Shown here piece by piece: positions 1-15,632 of a stretch of DNA of 64,000 nucleotides (positions within the stretch are counted from its first letter, which is position 1; the number at the start of each line of letters is the position of its first letter). The notes under the pieces are model-generated. The model was not told the origin of the DNA and did no database searches. It saw nothing but the letters and a program-made list of their open reading frames with translations. The stretch lies in assembly GCA_964016885.1 (NCBI GenBank), contig OZ024744.1, positions 125,922,001 to 125,986,000 on the forward strand. Direction: 5' to 3'. The position numbers and the translations under genes were made by a program. The DNA comes from Eledone cirrhosa. Lineage: Eukaryota.

Positions 1-802
1 TTTCGATTGCGCTTCCGTCGCGGCAAAAGAATTGCCTTTCCAGACCGCCGTCGCCCGACCGGACCCATGATAGAAGACGTTCGTTACCGTTGGAGCAACG
101 CAAATTACTCCTCGGTTGACGCCAAAAACGAACGCCTTCCCGCCTCGCGCCGCCTTCTCCTCGCCGACCCTCGGCCTCGACGATTAGCCACTTTCCGTCA
201 CAGCAGTAGATACGCGTCCGTCGTAATAGCCGTCATTTTAACGCAGGAGAAACGCCTAATTGCCCTGCACCGCGTTTGACGGCGATCTACGACGGCGACG
301 ATGCGCGCACTCTTCCTTGCTGCGACGAAGGTTTCGGCTTTTCGTCGTGGACCCGGTCAGGTCATGCCGCTGACCTCGCGTTACGGCGACGCGAGAAGAC
401 GTTCGTTACCGCTGGAGCAACGCAAATTACTCCTCGGTTGACGCCAAAAACGAACGCCTCGCGCCGCCGCTTCCTCCTCGGCCTCGACGATTAGCCGCTT
501 TCCGTCACAGCAGTAGATACGCGTCCATCGTAATAGCCGTCATTTTAACGCAGGAGAAACGCCTTGACGACGATATACGACGGGTCGACGACGCGCGCAC
601 TCTTTCTGCTGCGACGAAGGTTTTGGCTTTTCGTTGTGGACCCGGTCGGGTCATGCCTCTGACCTCGCGTTGCGTCGCCACCGCCGCGGCGGGCTTGGGT
701 TTAGCCGTAGCTACCCTCGTTTTGCCAACGGCGACGCGAGAAGACGTTCGTTACCGCTGGAGCAACGCAAATTACTCCTCGGATGAGGCCAAAAACGAAC
801 GC
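1..802 (+). repeat. Diverged copy of the rDNA spacer/5'ETS-like sequence found at 6904-7850 (no 18S follows)
   Basis: Shares GAAGACGTTCGTTACCG(C/T)TGGAGCAACGCAAATTACTCCTCGG...AAAAACGAACG (three copies, near 73, 395 and 741) and CGTCACAGCAGTAG...CGTAATAGCCGTCATTTTAA with 6904-7800; internal ~320-bp duplication; CpG-rich. Confidence 0.8.
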
Positions 803-6519: not shown

Positions 6520-6685
6520 TTACCAAGTGCTGCATGGCTGGAATGAAAATCAGTGCTGTGAAAACCAAGACATTCATCCTCTCAAGGAAGCTTGTGCAGT
6601 GCACTCTACATGTAAATGGAGTCCCACTGAAGCAGGTAGAAAAGTTCATGTATCTCGAAGCTGTGTTCACGAGTGATGACAGAGA
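6520..6685 (+). mobile_element. RTE-clade (Rex3/Expander-like) LINE RT C-terminal fragment
   Basis: GMKISAVKTKTFILSRKLVQCTLHVNGVPLKQVEKFMYLEAVFTSD resembles the GMKIS..K..L.QV..FKYLG..FTS motif. Confidence 0.75.
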
Positions 6686-6820
6686 CGGCAAAGGCACAAC
6701 ACACAACAGAAGAAAAGAACAATGACAATTATTATTATTATTATTATTATTATTATTTGTTTTATTAGTTTTATTATAATAAAAATTGTGCTGTTAGTTT
6801 GCTTGCTATACCATCATGTA

Positions 6821-6907
6821 CCCTAACCCTAAACCTAACCCCAACTCCAACTCTGACCCTAAACCTAACCCCAACCCCAACCCTAACCCTAACCCTAACC
6901 CTAACCC
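6821..6907 (-). repeat. Interstitial telomeric tract, ~14.5 hexamers of CCCTAA and variants (TTAGGG on the minus strand)
   Basis: ccctaa ccctaa acctaa ccccaa ctccaa ctctga ccctaa acctaa ccccaa ccccaa (ccctaa)4 ccc, all in hexamer register. Confidence 0.9.
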
Positions 6908-7492
6908 ACGATAGAAGACGTTCGTTACCGCTGGAGCAACGCAAATTACTCCTCGGTTGACGCCAAAAACGAACGCCTTCTCGACGGCTAGCCGCATTTC
7001 GTGATCCGCCTTTCGATTGCGCTTCCGTCGCGGAAAAAGAATTGCCTTTATAGGCCGCCGCCGCCCGACCGGACCCACGATAGAAGACGTTCGTTACCGC
7101 TGGAGCAACGCAAATTACTCCTCGGTTGACGCCAAAAACGAACGCCTTCTCGACGGCTAGCCGCATTTCGTGATCCGCCTTTCGATTGCGCTTCCGTCGC
7201 GGAAAAAGAATTGCCTTTATAGGCCGCCGCCGCCGCCCGACCGGACCCACGATAGAAGACGTTCGTTACCGCTGGAGCAACGCAAATTACTCCTCGGTTG
7301 ACGCCAAAAACGAACGCCTTCTCGACGGCTAGCCGCATTTCGTGATCCGCCTTTCGATTGCGCTTCCGTCGCGGAAAAAGAATTGCCTTTATAGGCCGCC
7401 GCCGCCGCCCGACCGGACCCACGATAGAAGACGTTCGTTACCGCTGGAGCAACGCAAATTACTCCTCGGTTGACGCCAAAAACGAACGCCTT
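6904..7492 (+). repeat. Tandem 169/172/172-bp repeats plus a partial fourth copy; rDNA spacer subrepeat-like
   Basis: ACCCACGATAG recurs at 6904, 7073, 7245 and 7417; copies appear identical except for one GCC triplet; located directly upstream of the 18S 5' end. Confidence 0.9.
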
Positions 7493-7850
7493 CCGGTTCG
7501 GGCGACGTAAAAGTCTGTAGCCTTTTCGCCGATCCTCGACGATTATCCGCCTTCCGAACAACCGCCTTTCCGCCGTCACAGCAGTAGGTACTCGTCCGTC
7601 GTAATAGCCGTCATTTTAATGCAGGAGAAACGCCTAAATGCACTGCGATTGACGACGATCTACGACGCGCTTACTCTTCCTTGCTGCGACGAAGGTTTCG
7701 TTCGGCTTTTCGTCGTGGACCCGGTCAGGTCATGCCGCTGATCTCGCGTTGCGTCGTTACCGCTGGAGCAACGCAAATTACTCCTCGTTTAACGCCAACA
7801 TCGAACGCGCTTCGGTTCTCGGTCGTCGTTGTTTTGTTTCGTGCGGAAGA
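7493..7850 (+). other. 5' external transcribed spacer-like sequence
   Basis: CpG-rich, lies between the spacer repeats and the 18S start, homologous to 180-670; the assignment is positional. Confidence 0.6.
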
Positions 7851-8035
7851 TACCTGGGTGATCCTGCCAGTAGTCATATGCTTGTCTCAAAGCTTAAGCC
7901 ATGCAAGTGGAAGTTCATGCCGTAAACGAAAATGGTGAAACCGCGAATGGCTCAGGAACCGGATCTAATCCTCGGGACCGTATTCCTCACCGCGAGGAGA
8001 GGATAACTGTGGCAATTCTAGAGCTAATACATGCA
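7851..8035 (+). pseudogene. 18S rRNA 5' fragment (~185 nt), divergent and truncated
   Basis: TACCTGGGTGATCCTGCCAGTAGTCATATGCTTGTCTCAAAGCTTAAGCCATGCA, GGTGAAACCGCGAATGGCTCA and GGATAACTGTGGCAATTCTAGAGCTAATACATGC in canonical order. Confidence 0.95.
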
Positions 8036-8043
8036 ATTGAGAT

Positions 8044-11000
8044 CGGAGAGGGAGCGATCCGTCTGCTTGATTCCGATAACGAACGAGACATTCGTATCCG
8101 AAAGAACGTTTGTCTGGAAACTGGTGCAGTCAGTGAGTCGAAAAAAAAATATCTCGGTGGTAGTAGCAAATATTCGAACGAGACATTCGTATCCGAAAGA
8201 ACGTTTGTCTGGAAACTGGTGAGTCAGTGAGTCGAAAAAAAAAATATCTCGGTGGTAGTAGCAAATATTCGAACGAGACATTCGTATGCGAAAGAAAAAT
8301 ATCTCGGTGGTAGTAGCAAATATTCGAACGAGACATTCGTATGCGAAAGAACGTTTGTCTGGAAGTGGCGATCCATGCCCGGTGGATAGTTGGTTCCGGG
8401 TTTTACTATGATTGTTGCAAAACAGAAACTTAAAGGGATTGACAGAATTTGCGATTCCGGAGAGGGGGCGATCCGTCTGCTTGATTCCGATAACGAACGA
8501 GACATTCGTATCCGAAAGAACGTTTGTCTGGAAACTGGTGAGTCAGTGAGTCGAAAAAAAAATATCTCGGTGGTAGTAGCAAATATTCGAACGAGACATT
8601 CGTATGCGAAAGAAAAATATCTCGGTGGTAGTAGCAAATATTCGAACGAGACATTCGTATGCGAAAGAACGTTTGTCTGGAAGTGGCGATCCATGCCCGG
8701 TGGATAGTTGGTTCCGGGTTTTACTATGATTGTTGCAAAACAGAAACTTAAAGGGATTGACAGGATTTGCGATTCCGGAGAGGGGGCGATCCGTCTGCTT
8801 GATTCCGATAACGAACGAGACATTCGTATCCGAAAGAACGTTTGTCTGGAAACTGGTGAGTCAGTGAGTCGAAAAAAAAATATCTCGGTGGTAGTAGCAA
8901 ATATTCGAACGAGACATTCGTATGCGAAAGAACGTTTGTCGGTGGTAGTAGCAAATATTCGAACGAGACATTCGTATGCGAAAGAACGTTTGTCTGGAAG
9001 TGGCGATCCATGCCCGGTGGATAGTTGGTTCCGGGTTTTACTATGATTGTTGCAAAACAGAAACTTAAAGGGATTGACAGAATTTGCGATTCCGGAGAGG
9101 GGGCGATCCGTCTGCTTGATTCCGATAACGAACGAGACATTCGTATCCGAAAGAACGTTTGTCTGGAAACTGGTGAGTCAGTGAGTCGAAAAAAAAAATA
9201 TCTCGGTGGTAGTAGCAAATATTCGAACGAGACATTCGTATGCGAAAGAACGTTTGTCGGTGGTAGTAGCAAATATTCGAACGAGACATTCGTATGCGAA
9301 AGAACGTTTGTCTGGAAGTGGCGATCCATGCCCGGTGGATAGTTGGTTCCGGGTTTTACTATGATTGTTGCAAAACAGAAACTTAAAGGGATTGACAGAA
9401 TTTGCGATTCCGGAGAGGGGGCGATCCGTCTGCTTGATTCCGATAACGAACGAGACATTCGTATCCGAAAGAACGTTTGTCTGGAAACTGGTGAGTCAGT
9501 GAGTCGAAAAAAAAAATATCTCGGTGGTAGTAGCAAATATTCGAACGAGACATTCGTATGCGAAAGAAAAATATCTCGGTGGTAGTAGCAAATATTCGAA
9601 CGAGACATTCGTATGCGAAAGAACGTTTGTCTGGAAGTGGCGATCCATGCCCGGTGGATAGTTGGTTCCGGGTTTTACTATGATTGTTGCAAAACAGAAA
9701 CTTAAAGGGATTGACAGAATTTGCGATTCCGGAGAGGGGGCGATCCGTCTGCTTGATTCCGATAACGAACGAGACATTCGTATCCGAAAGAACGTTTGTC
9801 TGGAAACTGGTGAGTCAGTGAGTCGAAAAAAAAAATATCTCGGTGGTAGTAGCAAATATTCGAACGAGACATTCGTATGCGAAAGAACGTTTGTCGGTGG
9901 TAGTAGCAAATATTCGAACGAGACATTCGTATGCGAAAGAACGTTTGTCGGTGGTAGTAGCAAATATTCGAACGAGACATTCGTATGCGAAAGAACGTTT
10001 GTCTGGAAGTGGCGATCCATGCCCGGTGGATAGTTGGTTCCGGGTTTTACTATGATTGTTGCAAAACAGAAACTTAAAGGGATTGACAGAATTTGCGATT
10101 CCGGAGAGAGGGCGATCCGTCTGCTTGATTCCGATAACGAACGAGACATTCGTATCCGAGAGAACGTTTGTCTGGAAACTGGTGAGTCAGTGAGTCGAAA
10201 AAAAAATATCTCGGTGGTAGTAGCAAATATTCGAACGAGACATTCGTATGCGAAAGAAAAATATCTCGGTGGTAGTAGCAAATATTCGAACGAGACATTC
10301 TTATGCGAAAGAACGTTTGTCTGGAAGTGGCGATCCATGCCCGGTGGATAGTTGGTTCCGGGTTTTACTATGATTGTTGCAAAACAGAAACTTAAAGGGA
10401 TTGACAGAATTTGCCATTCCGGAGAGGGGGCGATCCGTCTGCTTGATTCCGATAACGAACGAGACATTCGTATCCGAAAGAACGTTTGTCTGGAAACTGG
10501 TGCAGTCAGTGAGTCGAAAAAAAAATATCTCGGTGGTAGTAGCAAATATTCGAACGAGACATTCGTATGCGAAAGAACGTTTGTCGGTGGTAGTAGCAAA
10601 TATTCGAACGAGACATTCGTATGCGAAAGAACGTTTGTCTGGAAGTGGCGATCCATGCCCGGTGGATAGTTGGTTCCGGGTTTTACTATGATTGTTGCAA
10701 AACAGAAACTTAAAGGGATTGACAGAATTTGCGATTCCGGAGAGGGGGCGATCCGTCTGCTTGATTCCGATAACGAACGAGACATTCGTATCCGAAAGAA
10801 CGTTTGTCTGGAAACTGGTGAGTCAGTGAGTCGAAAAAAAAAATATCTCGGTGGTAGTAGCAAATATTCGAACGAGACATTCGTATGCGAAAGAACGTTT
10901 GTCGGTGGTAGTAGCAAATATTCGAACGAGACATTCGTATGCGAAAGAACGTTTGTCTGGAAGTGGCGATCCATGCCCGGTGGATAGTTGGTTCCGGGTT

Positions 11001-13591
11001 TTACTATGATTGTTGCAAAACAGAAACTTAAAGGGATTGACAGAATTTGCGATTCCGGAGAGGGGGCGATCCGTCTGCTTGATTCCGATAACGAACGAGA
11101 CATTCGTATCCGAAAGAACGTTTGTCTGGAAACTGGTGAGTCAGTGAGTCGAAAAAAAAATATCTCGGTGGTAGTAGCAAATATTCGAACGAGACATTCG
11201 TATGCGAAAGAACGTTTGTCGGTGGTAGTAGCAAATATTCGAACGAGACATTCGTATGCGAAAGAACGTTTGTCTGGAAGTGGCGATCCATGCCCGGTGG
11301 ATAGTTGGTTCCGGGTTTTACTATGATTGTTGCAAAACAGAAACTTAAAGGGATTGACAGAATTTGCGATTACGGAGAGGGGGCGATCCGTCTGCTTGAT
11401 TCCGATAACGAACGAGACATTCGTATCCGAAAGAACGTTTGTCTGGAAACTGGTGAGTCGAAAAAAAAATATCTCGGTGGTAGTAGCAAATATTCGTATG
11501 CGAAAGAAAAGATCTCGGTGGTAGTAGCAAATATTCGAACGAGACATTCGTAGGCGAAAGAAAAATATCTCGGTGGTAGTAGCAAATATTCGAACGAGAC
11601 ATTCGTATGCGAAAGAACGTTTGTCGGTGGTAGTAGCAAATATTCGAACGAGACATTCGTATGCGAAAGAACGTTTGTCGGTGGTAGTAGCAAATATTCG
11701 AACGAGACATTCGTATGCGAAAGAACGTTTGTCTGGAAGTGGCGATCCATGCCCGGTGGATAGTTGGTTCCGGGTTTTACTATGATTGTTGCAAAACAGA
11801 AACTTAAAGGGATTGACAGAATTTGCGATTACGGAGAGGGGGCGATCCGTCTGCTTGATTCCGATAACGAACGAGACATTCGTATCCGAAAGAACGTTTG
11901 TCTGGAAACTGGTGAGTCAGTGAGTCGAAAAAAAAATATCTCGGTGGTAGTAGCAAATATTCGAACGAGACATTCGTATGCGAAAGAACGTTTGTCGGTG
12001 GTAGTAGCAAATATTCGAACGAGACATTCGTATGCGAAAGAACGTTTGTCTGGAAGTGGCGATCCATGCCCGGTGGATAGTTGGTTCCGGGTTTTACTAT
12101 GATTGTTGCAAAACAGAAACTTAAAGGGATTGACAGAATTTGCGATTACGGAGAGGGGGCGATCCGTCTGCTTGATTCCGATAACGAACGAGACATTCGT
12201 ATCCGAAAGAACGTTTGTCTGGAAACTGGTGAGTCAGTGAGTCGAAAAAAAAATATCTCGGTGGTAGTAGCAAATATTCGAACGAGACATTCGTATGCGA
12301 AAGAACGTTTGTCGGTGGTAGTAGCAAATATTCGAACGAGACATTCGTATGCGAAAGAACGTTTGTCTGGAAGTGGCGATCCATGCCCGGTGGATAGTTG
12401 GTTCCGGGTTTTACTATGATTGTTGCAAAACAGAAACTTAAAGGGATTGACAGAATTTGCGATTCCAGAGAGGGGGCGATCCGTCTGCTTGATTCCGATA
12501 ACGAACGAGACATTCGTATCCGAAAGAACGTTTGTCTGGAAACTGGTGAGTCGAAAAAAAAATATCTCGGTGGTAGTAGCAAATATTCGTATGCGAAAGA
12601 AAAGATCTCGGTGGTAGTAGCAAATATTCGAACGAGACATTCGTAGGCGAAAGAAAAATATCTCGGTGGTAGTAGCAAATATTCGAACGAGACATTCGTA
12701 TGCGAAAGAACGTTTGTCGGTGGTAGTAGCAAATATTCGAACGAGACATTCGTATGCGAAAGAACGTTTGTCGGTGGTAGTAGCAAATATTCGAACGAGA
12801 CATTCGTATGCGAAAGAACGTTTGTCTGGAAGTGGCGATCCATGCCCGGTGGATAGTTGGTTCCGGGTTTTACTATGATTGTTGCAAAACAGAAACTTAA
12901 AGGGATTGACAGAATTTGCGATTCCGGAGAGAGGGCGATCCGTCTGCTTGATTCCGATAACGAACGAGACATTCGTATCCGAAAGAACGTTTGTCTGGAA
13001 ACTGGTGAGTCAGTGAGTCGAAAAAAAAATATCTCGGTGGTAGTAGCAAATATTCGAACGAGACATTCGTATGCGAAAGAACGTTTGTCGGTGGTAGTAG
13101 CAAATATTCGAACGAGACATTCGTATGCGAAAGAACGTTTGTCTGGAAGTGGCGATCCATGCTCGGTGGATAGTTGGTTCCGGGTTTTACTATGATTGTT
13201 GCAAAACAGAAACTTAAAGGGATTGACAGAATTTGCGATTCCGGAGAGGGGGCGATCCGTCTGCTTGATTCCGATAACGAACGAGACATTCGTATCCGAA
13301 AGAACGTTTGTCTGGAAACTGGTGAGTCAGTGAGTCGAAAAAAAAATATCTCGGTGGTAGTAGCAAATATTCGTATGCGAAAGAAAAGATCTCGGTGGTA
13401 GTAGCAAATATTCGAACGAGACATTCGTATGCGAAAGAAAAATATCTCGGTGGTAGTAGCAAATATTCGAACGAGACATTCGTATTCGAAAGAACGTTTG
13501 TCTGGAAGTTGCGATCCATGCCCGGTGGATAGTTGGTTCCGGGCTTTACTATGATTGTTGCAAAACAGAAACTTAAAGGAATTGACAGAAT
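8044..13591 (+). repeat. rDNA-derived satellite: ~317-319-bp unit (variants 359, 372 and 459 bp), ~16 units, with an internal 54-bp subrepeat; mosaic of 18S and 28S motifs
   Basis: Unit marker TTGGTTCCGGG at 8390, 8708, 9025, 9343, 9662, 10034, 10352, 10670, 10988, 11305, 11764, 12081, 12398, 12857, 13174 and 13533; contains 18S motifs GATTCCGGAGAGGG, TTCCGATAACGAACGAGAC and GAAACTTAAAGG(G/A)ATTGAC, and 28S motif ATCT(C)GGTGGTAGTAGCAAATATTC. Confidence 0.92.
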
Positions 13592-13619
13592 TTTCGAATC
13601 GACATCAACTCGGCTACGG

Positions 13620-13965
13620 CTATCCCGTCGAGTACGAGAGTATCGCGGGATCAGAGCAACGGTTTGCTAGGCTGCCTCTGAGCGATAACGGCTGAACGCC
13701 TCCTCTAAGCCGGAACCCTAGCCGGACCCGAGTTGTTTTTCGACAAGCGTCTCGACCTTCTTAAGGCCCATGCCTTAGTTTGGCGATTGCCGTCCGTTCG
13801 CCGACGGCGGCAGCGTCAGCGGAAATGCCATTCTGTGACGACTACGACGATTCGTCGTCGTCGTCGTCCATTCGATTTCCTGAAAGAGATAGAGACTAAA
13901 GTGATCAAATTGTTCGGAGTTACGTGCTTAGTAGAGCAGCTACCACACTGCAATCTATTGAGAGT
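13620..13965 (+). pseudogene. 28S rRNA 3'-terminal fragment, divergent
   Basis: AGTACGAGAG (sarcin-ricin loop core, 13631), CTGAACGCCTC(CTC)TAAG(C)C(G)GAA(C)CC (13692), and TAG(T)AGAGCAGCT..CTGC(A)ATCTATTGA (13929-13961) in canonical order. Confidence 0.85.
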
Positions 13966-14591
13966 TTTCTGACGAACGATACAATCCGCCCACGTGGCGC
14001 CAGAAAGGGAGAAGAAAAGAAAAGTTAGACGCCGCCGATCGATCGGTTCGTTGTTTTACGTGTACACAGCTTGTGTGTGTGTCTGTATGTGATACAAGCC
14101 GCCTATCCGTCTTCCAAGTAAGTTTTGTGTGTAGACTGCGGAAAGAAATCCAATCCGCCGTCTAGGCGGTTCTGCCGCCGACCCATACTTTTGCGAGTCG
14201 CTCCCGGGAAAGACAGGCGGCAAGACGGCGTGTATACACGACGCCTTCCGTCTTCCGCCTCGAACCCGGCAAACGTTCCTTTATTCGTCCACGCCTTCCC
14301 GCTTCGATCGCGAGAAAGTAATCAATCTGTTTTGTGTGTGTGTCTGTGTGTGATACAAATTTGTTTTCTTAATTTGATAACCATGAATTGTTTCAACACC
14401 GGCCCTTTTAAGGGCCACTTATATTTTCAATAATCAGTTTAAATGGGTTGCACCGTAGCCACTTGGTAATACACTGCAAATCTCCCGTCAATCTATGAAG
14501 GTTTTGTAGTAGATTAGATCAAAACACAATCAGCAAGACAGTAATGGAATGAATAATATAAACATTTGTTTATAATTAAAGCCTTAAGATG

Positions 14592-14645
14592 TCCCTCCCT
14601 CCCTCACTTCCTTCCTTCCTTCCTTCCTTCCTTCCTTCCTTCCTT
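14592..14645. repeat. (CCCT)/(CCTT)n microsatellite
   Basis: Directly visible. Confidence 0.95.
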
Positions 14646-14714
14646 ACGATATACACTTTAATAACATTGAAACTTATTTAATAAGTTTAAATTTTAAACA
14701 CTTTTTATTCAGAC

Positions 14715-14840
14715 GTACCGCGATAAGTAACTAGATATGTTCTAACGAATAATCCGCGATGTGGCGAGGATTACCGCGATAGGAAATTAGATACGTTCCA
14801 AAGAAATATCCGCGAAAAGTGAACCGCGATATAGCGGGTT
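14715..14840. mobile_element. Possible pogo/Tigger-like MITE end
   Basis: Five (A/T)CCGCGA subterminal-type motifs ending in GTGAACCGCGATATAGCGGG; the family call is from memory. Confidence 0.45.
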
Positions 14841-14846
14841 CACCAG

Positions 14847-14906
14847 CCAGTGTATTACTGGTACTTTATTTTATCGACCCCCATAAGGATGAAAGGCAAA
14901 GTTAAC
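14847..14906 (-). mobile_element. SINE fragment (inverted)
   Basis: Reverse complement GTTAACTTTGCCTTTCATCCTTATGGGGGTCGATAAAATAAAGTACCAGT matches 62306-62354. Confidence 0.85.
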
Positions 14907-15008
14907 TGTGCAATAACAAAGGGAGATAACCTCGTCTTTTTTTTTTTACGGAGTTATTTCCCTTTAAATTTTATCTATTACTTATGATGATACAATTTAA
15001 TCAGTTCT

Positions 15009-15132
15009 TAGCTGTCGAGACACTGCATCCTTTAAAACCTCCATGGAACAAGCTACCTGCAACAGTTGTTAGCTGTCGAGACACTGCATCTTTTAAAACC
15101 TCCATGGAACAAACTACCTGCATCAGTTGTTA
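15009..15132 (+). mobile_element. Tandemly duplicated 62-bp CR1/L2-like LINE ORF2 C-terminal fragment
   Basis: Translates WNKLPATVVSCRDTASFKTS (WNxLP..VV...FK motif); two copies 62 bp apart. Confidence 0.65.
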
Positions 15133-15134
15133 GG

Positions 15135-15191
15135 GTCTGAGTTCAAATCACGCCGAGGAGGTTAACTTTGCCTTTCATCCTTACGGGGTCG
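15135..15191 (+). mobile_element. SINE 5' fragment truncated at CGGGGTCG
   Basis: GTCTGAGTTCAAATCACGCCGAGG..GTTAACTTTGCCTTTCATCCTTACGGGGTCG, near-identical to 62283-62337. Confidence 0.85.
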
Positions 15192-15401
15192 GTCGGAAAA
15201 CGAACCATTCCCGGTTCGCTTTCGAAGCGGGTTTCCGAAAACAGCGCTTCTCTCGACCGGGCCCGTCGTCCGCTCGGCGGTGGTTTTCATCGTCCCAGGC
15301 ACGGCTAACAGGCGGAGACGGGACAAACGCGCGTGTTCCTTTTTTTATCAGCCGCAGCGCCGTTCGTATATATGCTTAGGTTGTTTTTTTTTTAAATATC
15401 C

Positions 15402-15632
15402 TAAGTTAAGTTGGGGCTAAGTTAAGTTGGGGCTAAGTTAAGTTGAGGTTAAGTTGAGTTGGGGTTAAGTTAAGTGGGGGTTAAGTTAAGCTGGGGTTAA
15501 GTTAAGTTGAGGTTAAGTTAAGTTGGGGTTAAGTCAAGTTGGGGTTAAGTTAAGTTGGGGTTAAGTTAGGTTGGGGTTAAGTTAGGTTGGGGTTAAGTTA
15601 AGTTGGGGTTAAGTTAGGTTGCGGTTAAGTTA
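15402..15632 (+). repeat. Telomere-like 16-bp tandem repeat (TTAAGTTAAGTTGGGG)n, ~14 copies
   Basis: Directly visible; G-rich on the + strand; variants TTAGG, TTGAGG and GGGGCT. Confidence 0.92.

Follow-up and report, generated by a model that had tools for sequence, protein, structure and literature searches.

The window analysed here is a 64,000-nucleotide stretch of the Eledone cirrhosa genome (contig OZ024744.1, positions 125,922,001 to 125,986,000), located at C28:125.92-125.99 Mb in a 136.5-Mb scaffold. A degenerate telomere-like tract lies in it between a LINE retrotransposon remnant and a piece of rDNA, and the features concerned are listed in Table 1. The 30 nt to the left of the tract belong to the LINE remnant, which we take to be an RTE element; weak RVT_1 and PHD matches, below the Pfam cut-off, were found on a dispersed copy of this LINE. 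The interval 6904-14358 and its 60 other copies represent a collapsed, likely promoter-less rDNA, with short conserved rRNA pieces arranged as a tandem patchwork in its middle. Directly after its 3' spacer piece, a Histone 3' stem-loop (Rfam RF00032, above the gathering score) was found at 14396-14440. The repeat unit is 71 kb long here, through an expanded 196-bp foldback satellite block at 15640-52800 with periods of 1.6 kb and 3.6 kb.

Table 1. Features of the window around the telomere-like tract and the rDNA-derived pieces.
Feature	Position	Strand	Remarks
Module 2, paralogous ETS-derived piece	1..802	+	Begins about 33 bp before the window; joint without ACCC
Flank block with (ATT)n	6675..6799	+	Paralogous to blocks upstream of module 2 and in ETS-less tandem families on C1, C3, C4 and C5
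LINE retrotransposon remnant, reverse-oriented	6791..6823	-	Left joint on a telomere-like word of the LINE (ACCC or AACC, by donor position)
Degenerate telomere-like (CCCTAA)n tract	6820..6907	-	G-rich strand on minus, heading away from the rDNA piece
ACCC/GGGT overlap, right joint	6904..6907	.	Common to tract and rDNA piece
172-bp tandem repeat, 3.4 copies	6904..7493	+	Chimera of the two ETS-like sub-repeats of canonical rDNA
Shortened 5'ETS-like sequence and 18S 5' end (from about 7853)	7494..8041	+
Tandem patchwork (about 318 bp) of short 18S, ITS1 and 28S pieces	8042..13600	+	Resolvable joints with 4-10 nt overlaps
28S 3' end and 3' spacer pieces	13602..14358	+
28S piece (15197-15402) joined to 16-bp telomere-like satellite (15402-15632)	15197..15632	+	Internal control; 2-nt overlap

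The tract measures 87 nt in the window (63-99 nt across the fetched copies) and carries nine mismatches over this length. Seven of its 14 whole hexamers are pure, the four adjoining the right joint being pure, and a 30-bp period was observed inside it. The initial annotation had read the first rDNA repeat as CCCTA-ACCC-ACGATAG against CCGG-ACCC-ACGATAG in the internal repeats; this was confirmed, and the in-register microhomology it proposed amounts to an overlap of exactly 4 nt between tract and rDNA piece. The tract is thus short and internal with an in-register overlap, as in short interstitial telomeric sequences.

In the assembly, the left joint and the right joint were each found in 61 copies, in matching places. 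All 61 right joints read identically, with the left joint about 70-106 nt away in every case. The copies are distributed over C28 (44, over 1.73 Mb), C18 (2) and five small contigs (15), and their spacing on C28 is 28-91 kb with a median of 37.7 kb, the unit being a ~38-kb macrosatellite. When other genomic copies were compared for the position of the putative telomere addition, as the initial annotation had suggested, the same site was found in 61/61, and differing sites were not observed among them. None of the 61 copies is terminal. The C28 array is located at 124.7-126.5 Mb, 10-12 Mb off the scaffold end, with the G-rich strand directed away from the near end, so that it is neither subtelomeric nor pointing towards the telomere. 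At C18:6.704-6.765 Mb the array occurs a second time, in rearranged form and with slight divergence (mostly 97.5-99.8%).

For three further samples carrying the same species label, raw reads extend over the tract side of the joint (6886-6891), where their summed depths are 44, 74 and 57, versus about 1,000 just inside the 172-bp repeat; an assembly artefact was thereby ruled out. In run X2, a contig spanning the tract side of the joint has a depth of 3709, and the canonical-ETS contig 3905; in run X1, the contig depth is 3684 for the collapsed rDNA and 3858 for true rDNA. Depth being a rough guide, these values fit a megarepeat copy number near that of true rDNA. Runs X4, X5 and X6, which come from other organisms, were rejected as evidence of age. 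The array pieces in X4 and X5 are near-identical, yet present at about 1% or less of each run's own 18S depth, which looks like carry-over, and the X4-X6 comparison skipped repeats and hence was blind to the joint itself.

Full rDNA units are present on C4, C6, C12 and C25. The canonical 18S is about 2.87 kb long, and each spacer sub-repeat carries a promoter-like motif. Neither (CCCTAA)2 nor (TTAGGG)2 was found in five canonical rDNA regions of these four scaffolds (160 kb). That the tract normally belongs to the rDNA spacer, or is an artefact of the assembly, is therefore hardly conceivable: within the rDNA units examined this explanation is refuted by the missing telomere dimer together with the raw reads over the joint, and support for it was found nowhere in the data examined.

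The rDNA piece that meets the tract was traced to two or three dispersed sub-repeats located 1.3-2 kb upstream of the 18S. The motif TATTATATAGGG, presumably the polymerase I start, is repeated in the canonical spacer sub-repeats, with its last copy about 215 bp before the first ACCC site, and it was not found in the array unit or the window. Since the rDNA piece corresponds to sequence downstream of the last TATTATATAGGG and is devoid of it, the sequence at the joint is likely promoter-less 5'ETS, and the joint marks where the pseudo-rDNA megarepeat lost the promoter-like motif. A similar, though not identical, promoter motif was proposed for mussels, in the accessible part of that paper (PMC6730533). 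The "spacer repeat" of the initial annotation is accordingly rDNA-derived as supposed, but instead of a tandem repeat of the canonical spacer it represents rearranged sequence of likely 5'ETS.

Each 172-bp unit consists of copy-2 upstream sequence, a copy-1-type linker and the copy-1 downstream end, in this order, a combination that occurs in none of the canonical or dispersed rows compared. Because the 172-bp unit contains the copy-1 linker, which canonical rDNA has upstream of its first ACCC, the ACCC joint is younger than the rearrangement that formed the unit. Either an already rearranged rDNA piece would have broken at ACCC, or the ACCC would be the scar of a later deletion. In contrast to the proposal that rDNA was broken in its spacer, the donor was an already rearranged ETS-like piece and not the canonical spacer.

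On the left side, the last LINE letters of the window can be read from two LINE positions. The dispersed LINE copies continue with CCC in 9/14 cases at one candidate donor position and with AACC in 14/19 at the other, so that the left joint, too, falls on a telomere-like word with a 3-5 nt overlap, whichever LINE position was the donor. Since telomerase extends the G-rich 3' end only, the overlap at the left joint needs end joining. It fits the fusion step supposed by the initial annotation, yet end joining alone gives such overlaps here. The two flanks are unrelated, the left continuing as LINE and the right as rDNA, and are not the halves of one contiguous empty site; a search for a clean pre-insertion site yielded relatives only.

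At 20 dispersed loci, fetched from 196 non-array matches to the LINE flank motif, the tract did not follow the motif (0/20), and its being part of the flanking LINE or of a dispersed element was rejected on this basis. Being absent from both canonical rDNA and these loci, the tract is not, in the units and loci examined, a fixed component of the canonical intergenic spacer or of the LINE; it was such a fixed component that the initial annotation had named as speaking against its reading. The same 0/20 makes it improbable that the tract grew by slippage, as an ordinary microsatellite, from the ACCC/AACC words at the joint, or that it came in with a mobile element that escaped recognition. Telomere-like words in both flanks, the length variation among copies and the position of three other tracts of the unit within (TC)n-rich simple sequence would agree with such an origin, but short telomere-like tracts were absent from 39 of 40 arbitrary 10-kb samples (the hit in the fortieth being the 16-bp satellite), and a 4-nt word would be a poor seed for a hexamer repeat.

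Four ETS-less relatives, tandem or dispersed, lack the tract at this LINE position, where their match stops, indicating that the tract came with or after the rDNA piece, in agreement with the initial annotation. Related repeats that have part of the macrosatellite unit in common with it but lack the ETS were found at C1:1.2 Mb, C3:361.6 Mb, C4:1.9 Mb and C5:9.6 and 134.65 Mb; those on C4 and C5 are tandem, with 3.3-3.7 kb units. Several of them are near scaffold ends, and as their subtelomeric orientation is mixed, orientation was left out as evidence. Two short exon-like segments of the window (about 1040-1255 and about 6672-6725) have splice-like borders and are conserved, as judged by eye, in the related tandem families; they are possibly a gene or lncRNA amplified along with the repeats.

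A second ETS-derived piece, module 2, is located about 6.9 kb upstream of the first (module 1) within one macrosatellite unit and was found in the raw reads of all three other samples. Upstream of it, just before the window, lie a 30-nt telomere-like remnant and a LINE and flank block as in module 1. In module 2, the point of entry into the ETS is about 120 bp upstream of an ACCC site. The two modules share the flank block, the tract polarity and the LINE position, and on the second reading of the left joint no more than about 20 nt of LINE sequence separates the starts of their tracts; most simply, both would descend from one LINE-tract-ETS block. Only three ETS columns are shared-derived between them, versus 20 and 30 private ones, and a common origin of the two ETS pieces thus rests mainly on the flanks. 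As the module 2 joint lies elsewhere and is without ACCC, one or both of the tract-ETS joints were presumably remodelled later, by deletion. Shared variant hexamers as proof that the tract was already degenerate at capture were dropped; counted by hand, the module 2 remnant has five mismatches in 30 against the pure repeat and six against module 1. The end of module 2 (803-847) resembles, in our assumption, the terminal repeat of a DNA transposon, and a lone, diverged 500-bp copy of the module 2 end joint was observed at C11:15.5 Mb.

The initial annotation attributed the right joint to chromosome healing. In the form considered here, telomerase would have been primed on the ...GGGT 3' end of broken, rearranged rDNA, and the short new telomere would have been joined to a LINE break, either in the same repair event, as in the model for short interstitial telomeric sequences, or after a time as a chromosome end, as the initial annotation had it. 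We regard this as a real possibility that falls short of being probable. The repeat in the tract is the terminal repeat of the organism: at the right end of C6, the final 5 kb contain 445 TTAGGG, with TTGGGG variants proximally, such a terminal array being observed at 1/11 scaffold ends examined. The polarity is correct, and the G-rich strand runs in register from a 4-nt seed, within the 1-5 nt expected at a healing site. The pure hexamers next to the right joint, the ETS-less relatives without a tract at this site and a tract decay of 10%, close to the 5-12% by which the adjacent ETS pieces differ from canonical rDNA, are also consistent with telomerase. When (CCCTAA)n is joined bluntly and at random to the canonical 5'ETS-like region, an overlap of at least 4 nt arises in 1.2% of position x phase trials, which suggests that the right joint was probably homology-guided. 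Precedents exist for such seeds: according to the accessible parts of the respective papers, 17% of short interstitial telomeric sequences in mouse and rat have at least 4 nt in register, versus 0.39% or less expected (PMC2246262), and 19/24 healed rDNA truncations in Magnaporthe lie on 1-4 nt seeds (PMC7367193).

One point against telomerase is the single site. The 2,163 bp of the canonical ETS-like region contain 40 equally good 4-mer seeds and two 6-mers, and one joint sequence was used; the joint of module 2 differs. Recurrent healing at dispersed rDNA copies was rejected, since telomere repeats were found at 0/11 dispersed rDNA ends (8 distinct loci; ends within 1.5 kb of the ETS motif), for which 30 ETS-motif loci were fetched and 27 examined, three canonical loci on C12 being left out. 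Truncated rDNA copies are dispersed in large numbers over C1-C4, C10 and C11. A long, terminal array, as at a healed end, is not what is seen either, the tract being short and internal in 61/61. A search for PF12009 (telomerase RNA-binding domain) gave no match, which speaks neither for nor against telomerase, as exon-split genes are easily missed and a positive control gave no signal.

Another point against telomerase is that overlaps of equal size were found at the far end of the tract and at non-telomeric joints. The comparison was limited to the six joints for which both donors were identified (J4, J8, M2a and others were left out), and their overlaps range from 2 to 10 nt. The ETS-ETS joint has 3 nt; the joint inside the 172-bp unit has 3 nt against module 2 and 0 against today's canonical copy; the 18S-18S joint has 5 nt; the 28S-ITS1 joint has 4 nt with one substitution beside it; and an 18S scrap and a 28S scrap have a common 10-nt word at their joint. 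The sixth, between a 28S piece and the 16-bp satellite, serves as an internal control: the satellite is unlike the terminal TTAGGG, its G-rich strand is directed away from the rDNA, and the joint, made within this unit, has a healing-like geometry although a telomerase origin is unlikely. At one neighbouring joint an 11-nt insert was observed, so that few-nt overlaps, deletions and short inserts, as left by end joining, occur together nearby. Polymerase-theta end joining produces deletions, short overlaps and inserted filler DNA. By this comparison, an overlap of 4 nt is ordinary for the patchwork, and short homologies of 1-12 nt at telomere fusion points are documented, in the accessible text of that study (PMC2847243).

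The 16-bp satellite was also found at all four sampled C28 points from 128 to 134 Mb, in both orientations, and to the left of the C28 array at about 124.67 Mb, a 230-bp piece of it being built into the unit. A linear rDNA piece capped at both ends, by CCCTAA on the left and the 16-bp repeat on the right, was considered and rejected, as the interval 14359-15196 does not consist of rDNA and the 16-bp repeat belongs to a widespread satellite. The 34-kb unit contains six hexamer tracts, all C-rich on the plus strand and of about three independent origins, to which the 16-bp satellite piece is opposite in polarity. A degenerate island at a block boundary with shared polarity, the latter seen here in 6/6 tracts, is also what is known from subtelomeric islands. 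Long, highly degenerate interstitial TTAGGG-type arrays were observed at C1:208.55-208.59 Mb and C1:217.83-217.88+ Mb, the second with higher-order periodicity. Judging from these sequences, telomere-like donor DNA for capture was apparently plentiful.

The joint is a single one, internal, amplified with the unit, and absent from canonical rDNA and the LINE family. On balance, we lean towards the tract being filler at one old LINE-rDNA joint, with ACCC deriving from microhomology-mediated end joining and not from telomerase priming. With similarly modest confidence, the structure is classified as a rearrangement joint that was guided by microhomology and contains a short interstitial telomere-like sequence. 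In this course of events, a LINE-bearing repeat would have broken and been linked to an ETS fragment via telomere-type DNA; duplication of the resulting LINE-tract-ETS block would then have given modules 1 and 2; microhomology-guided deletions would have removed sequence from each module; and unequal exchange would have expanded the unit inside a megabase satellite block. The ACCC would be the place where the ends annealed at capture, or else a scar left by a later deletion, and event counting favours neither an original nor a secondary ACCC. The tract is predicted to have no sequence-specific role and to have been simply carried along.

The ACCC overlap is not diagnostic of telomerase, because like overlaps are present at the far end of the tract and at non-telomeric joints, because there is one site, and because the joint is perhaps not the original one. 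The healing proposal agrees with the type of repeat, its polarity and the length of the seed, but no feature points to telomerase in particular, with one joint and no terminal copy. A stable healed chromosome end that was fused later is possible. The fullest version, in which telomerase healed the rDNA at ACCC/GGGT just past the promoter and severed the promoter, and in which the short telomere, once fused to a LINE, was multiplied until it roughly equalled real rDNA in copy number, is rather doubtful. If true, a megabase array of telomere islands of the same polarity would exist, each heading a promoter-less pseudo-rDNA, and the islands could bind telomere proteins or re-seed telomeres after breakage. 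If telomerase acted, a healed rDNA break was preserved and multiplied in a marine invertebrate germline, an earlier case of which was not found in the accessible parts of the literature searched. For comparisons among related species, the joint offers a fixed marker with which the array can be dated, and a 4-nt in-register overlap is no proof of telomerase where neighbouring joints show equal overlaps.

Short interstitial telomeric tracts that carry seed overlaps are already known, as are healed rDNA breaks. The structure comes closest to two known classes, short interstitial telomeric sequences and the internal telomere islands found at duplicon borders; the likenesses given here refer to the accessible parts of the papers cited. 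The tract resembles the mammalian short interstitial telomeric sequences of Nergadze et al. (2007) in being a short internal TTAGGG-type tract with the in-register overlap at the 5' side of the G-strand and decay with age, but the flanks of the latter are contiguous in the empty orthologous site, whereas here the flanks are LINE and rDNA, overlaps are present at both ends and the whole is 61-fold amplified (PMC2246262). As in Magnaporthe oryzae (Rahnama et al., 2020), an rDNA break is continued by TTAGGG from a seed of 1-4 nt; unlike there, where the additions are terminal, at many positions and caught forming, one internal and decayed site is seen (PMC7367193). The joint also shares deletions, 1-12 nt overlaps, filler DNA and complex patchworks with the telomere fusion junctions of Letsolo et al. 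(2010), which are somatic and from cultured human cells, in contrast to the inherited, amplified germline relic described here (PMC2847243). Internal telomere islands at duplicon borders are likewise short and degenerate, with the TTGGGG variant, unrelated blocks on both sides and a polarity shared within the duplicated unit; the present array differs from them in lying 10-12 Mb from the scaffold end, with the G-strand away from that end and pseudo-rDNA as one flank (PMC2323237).
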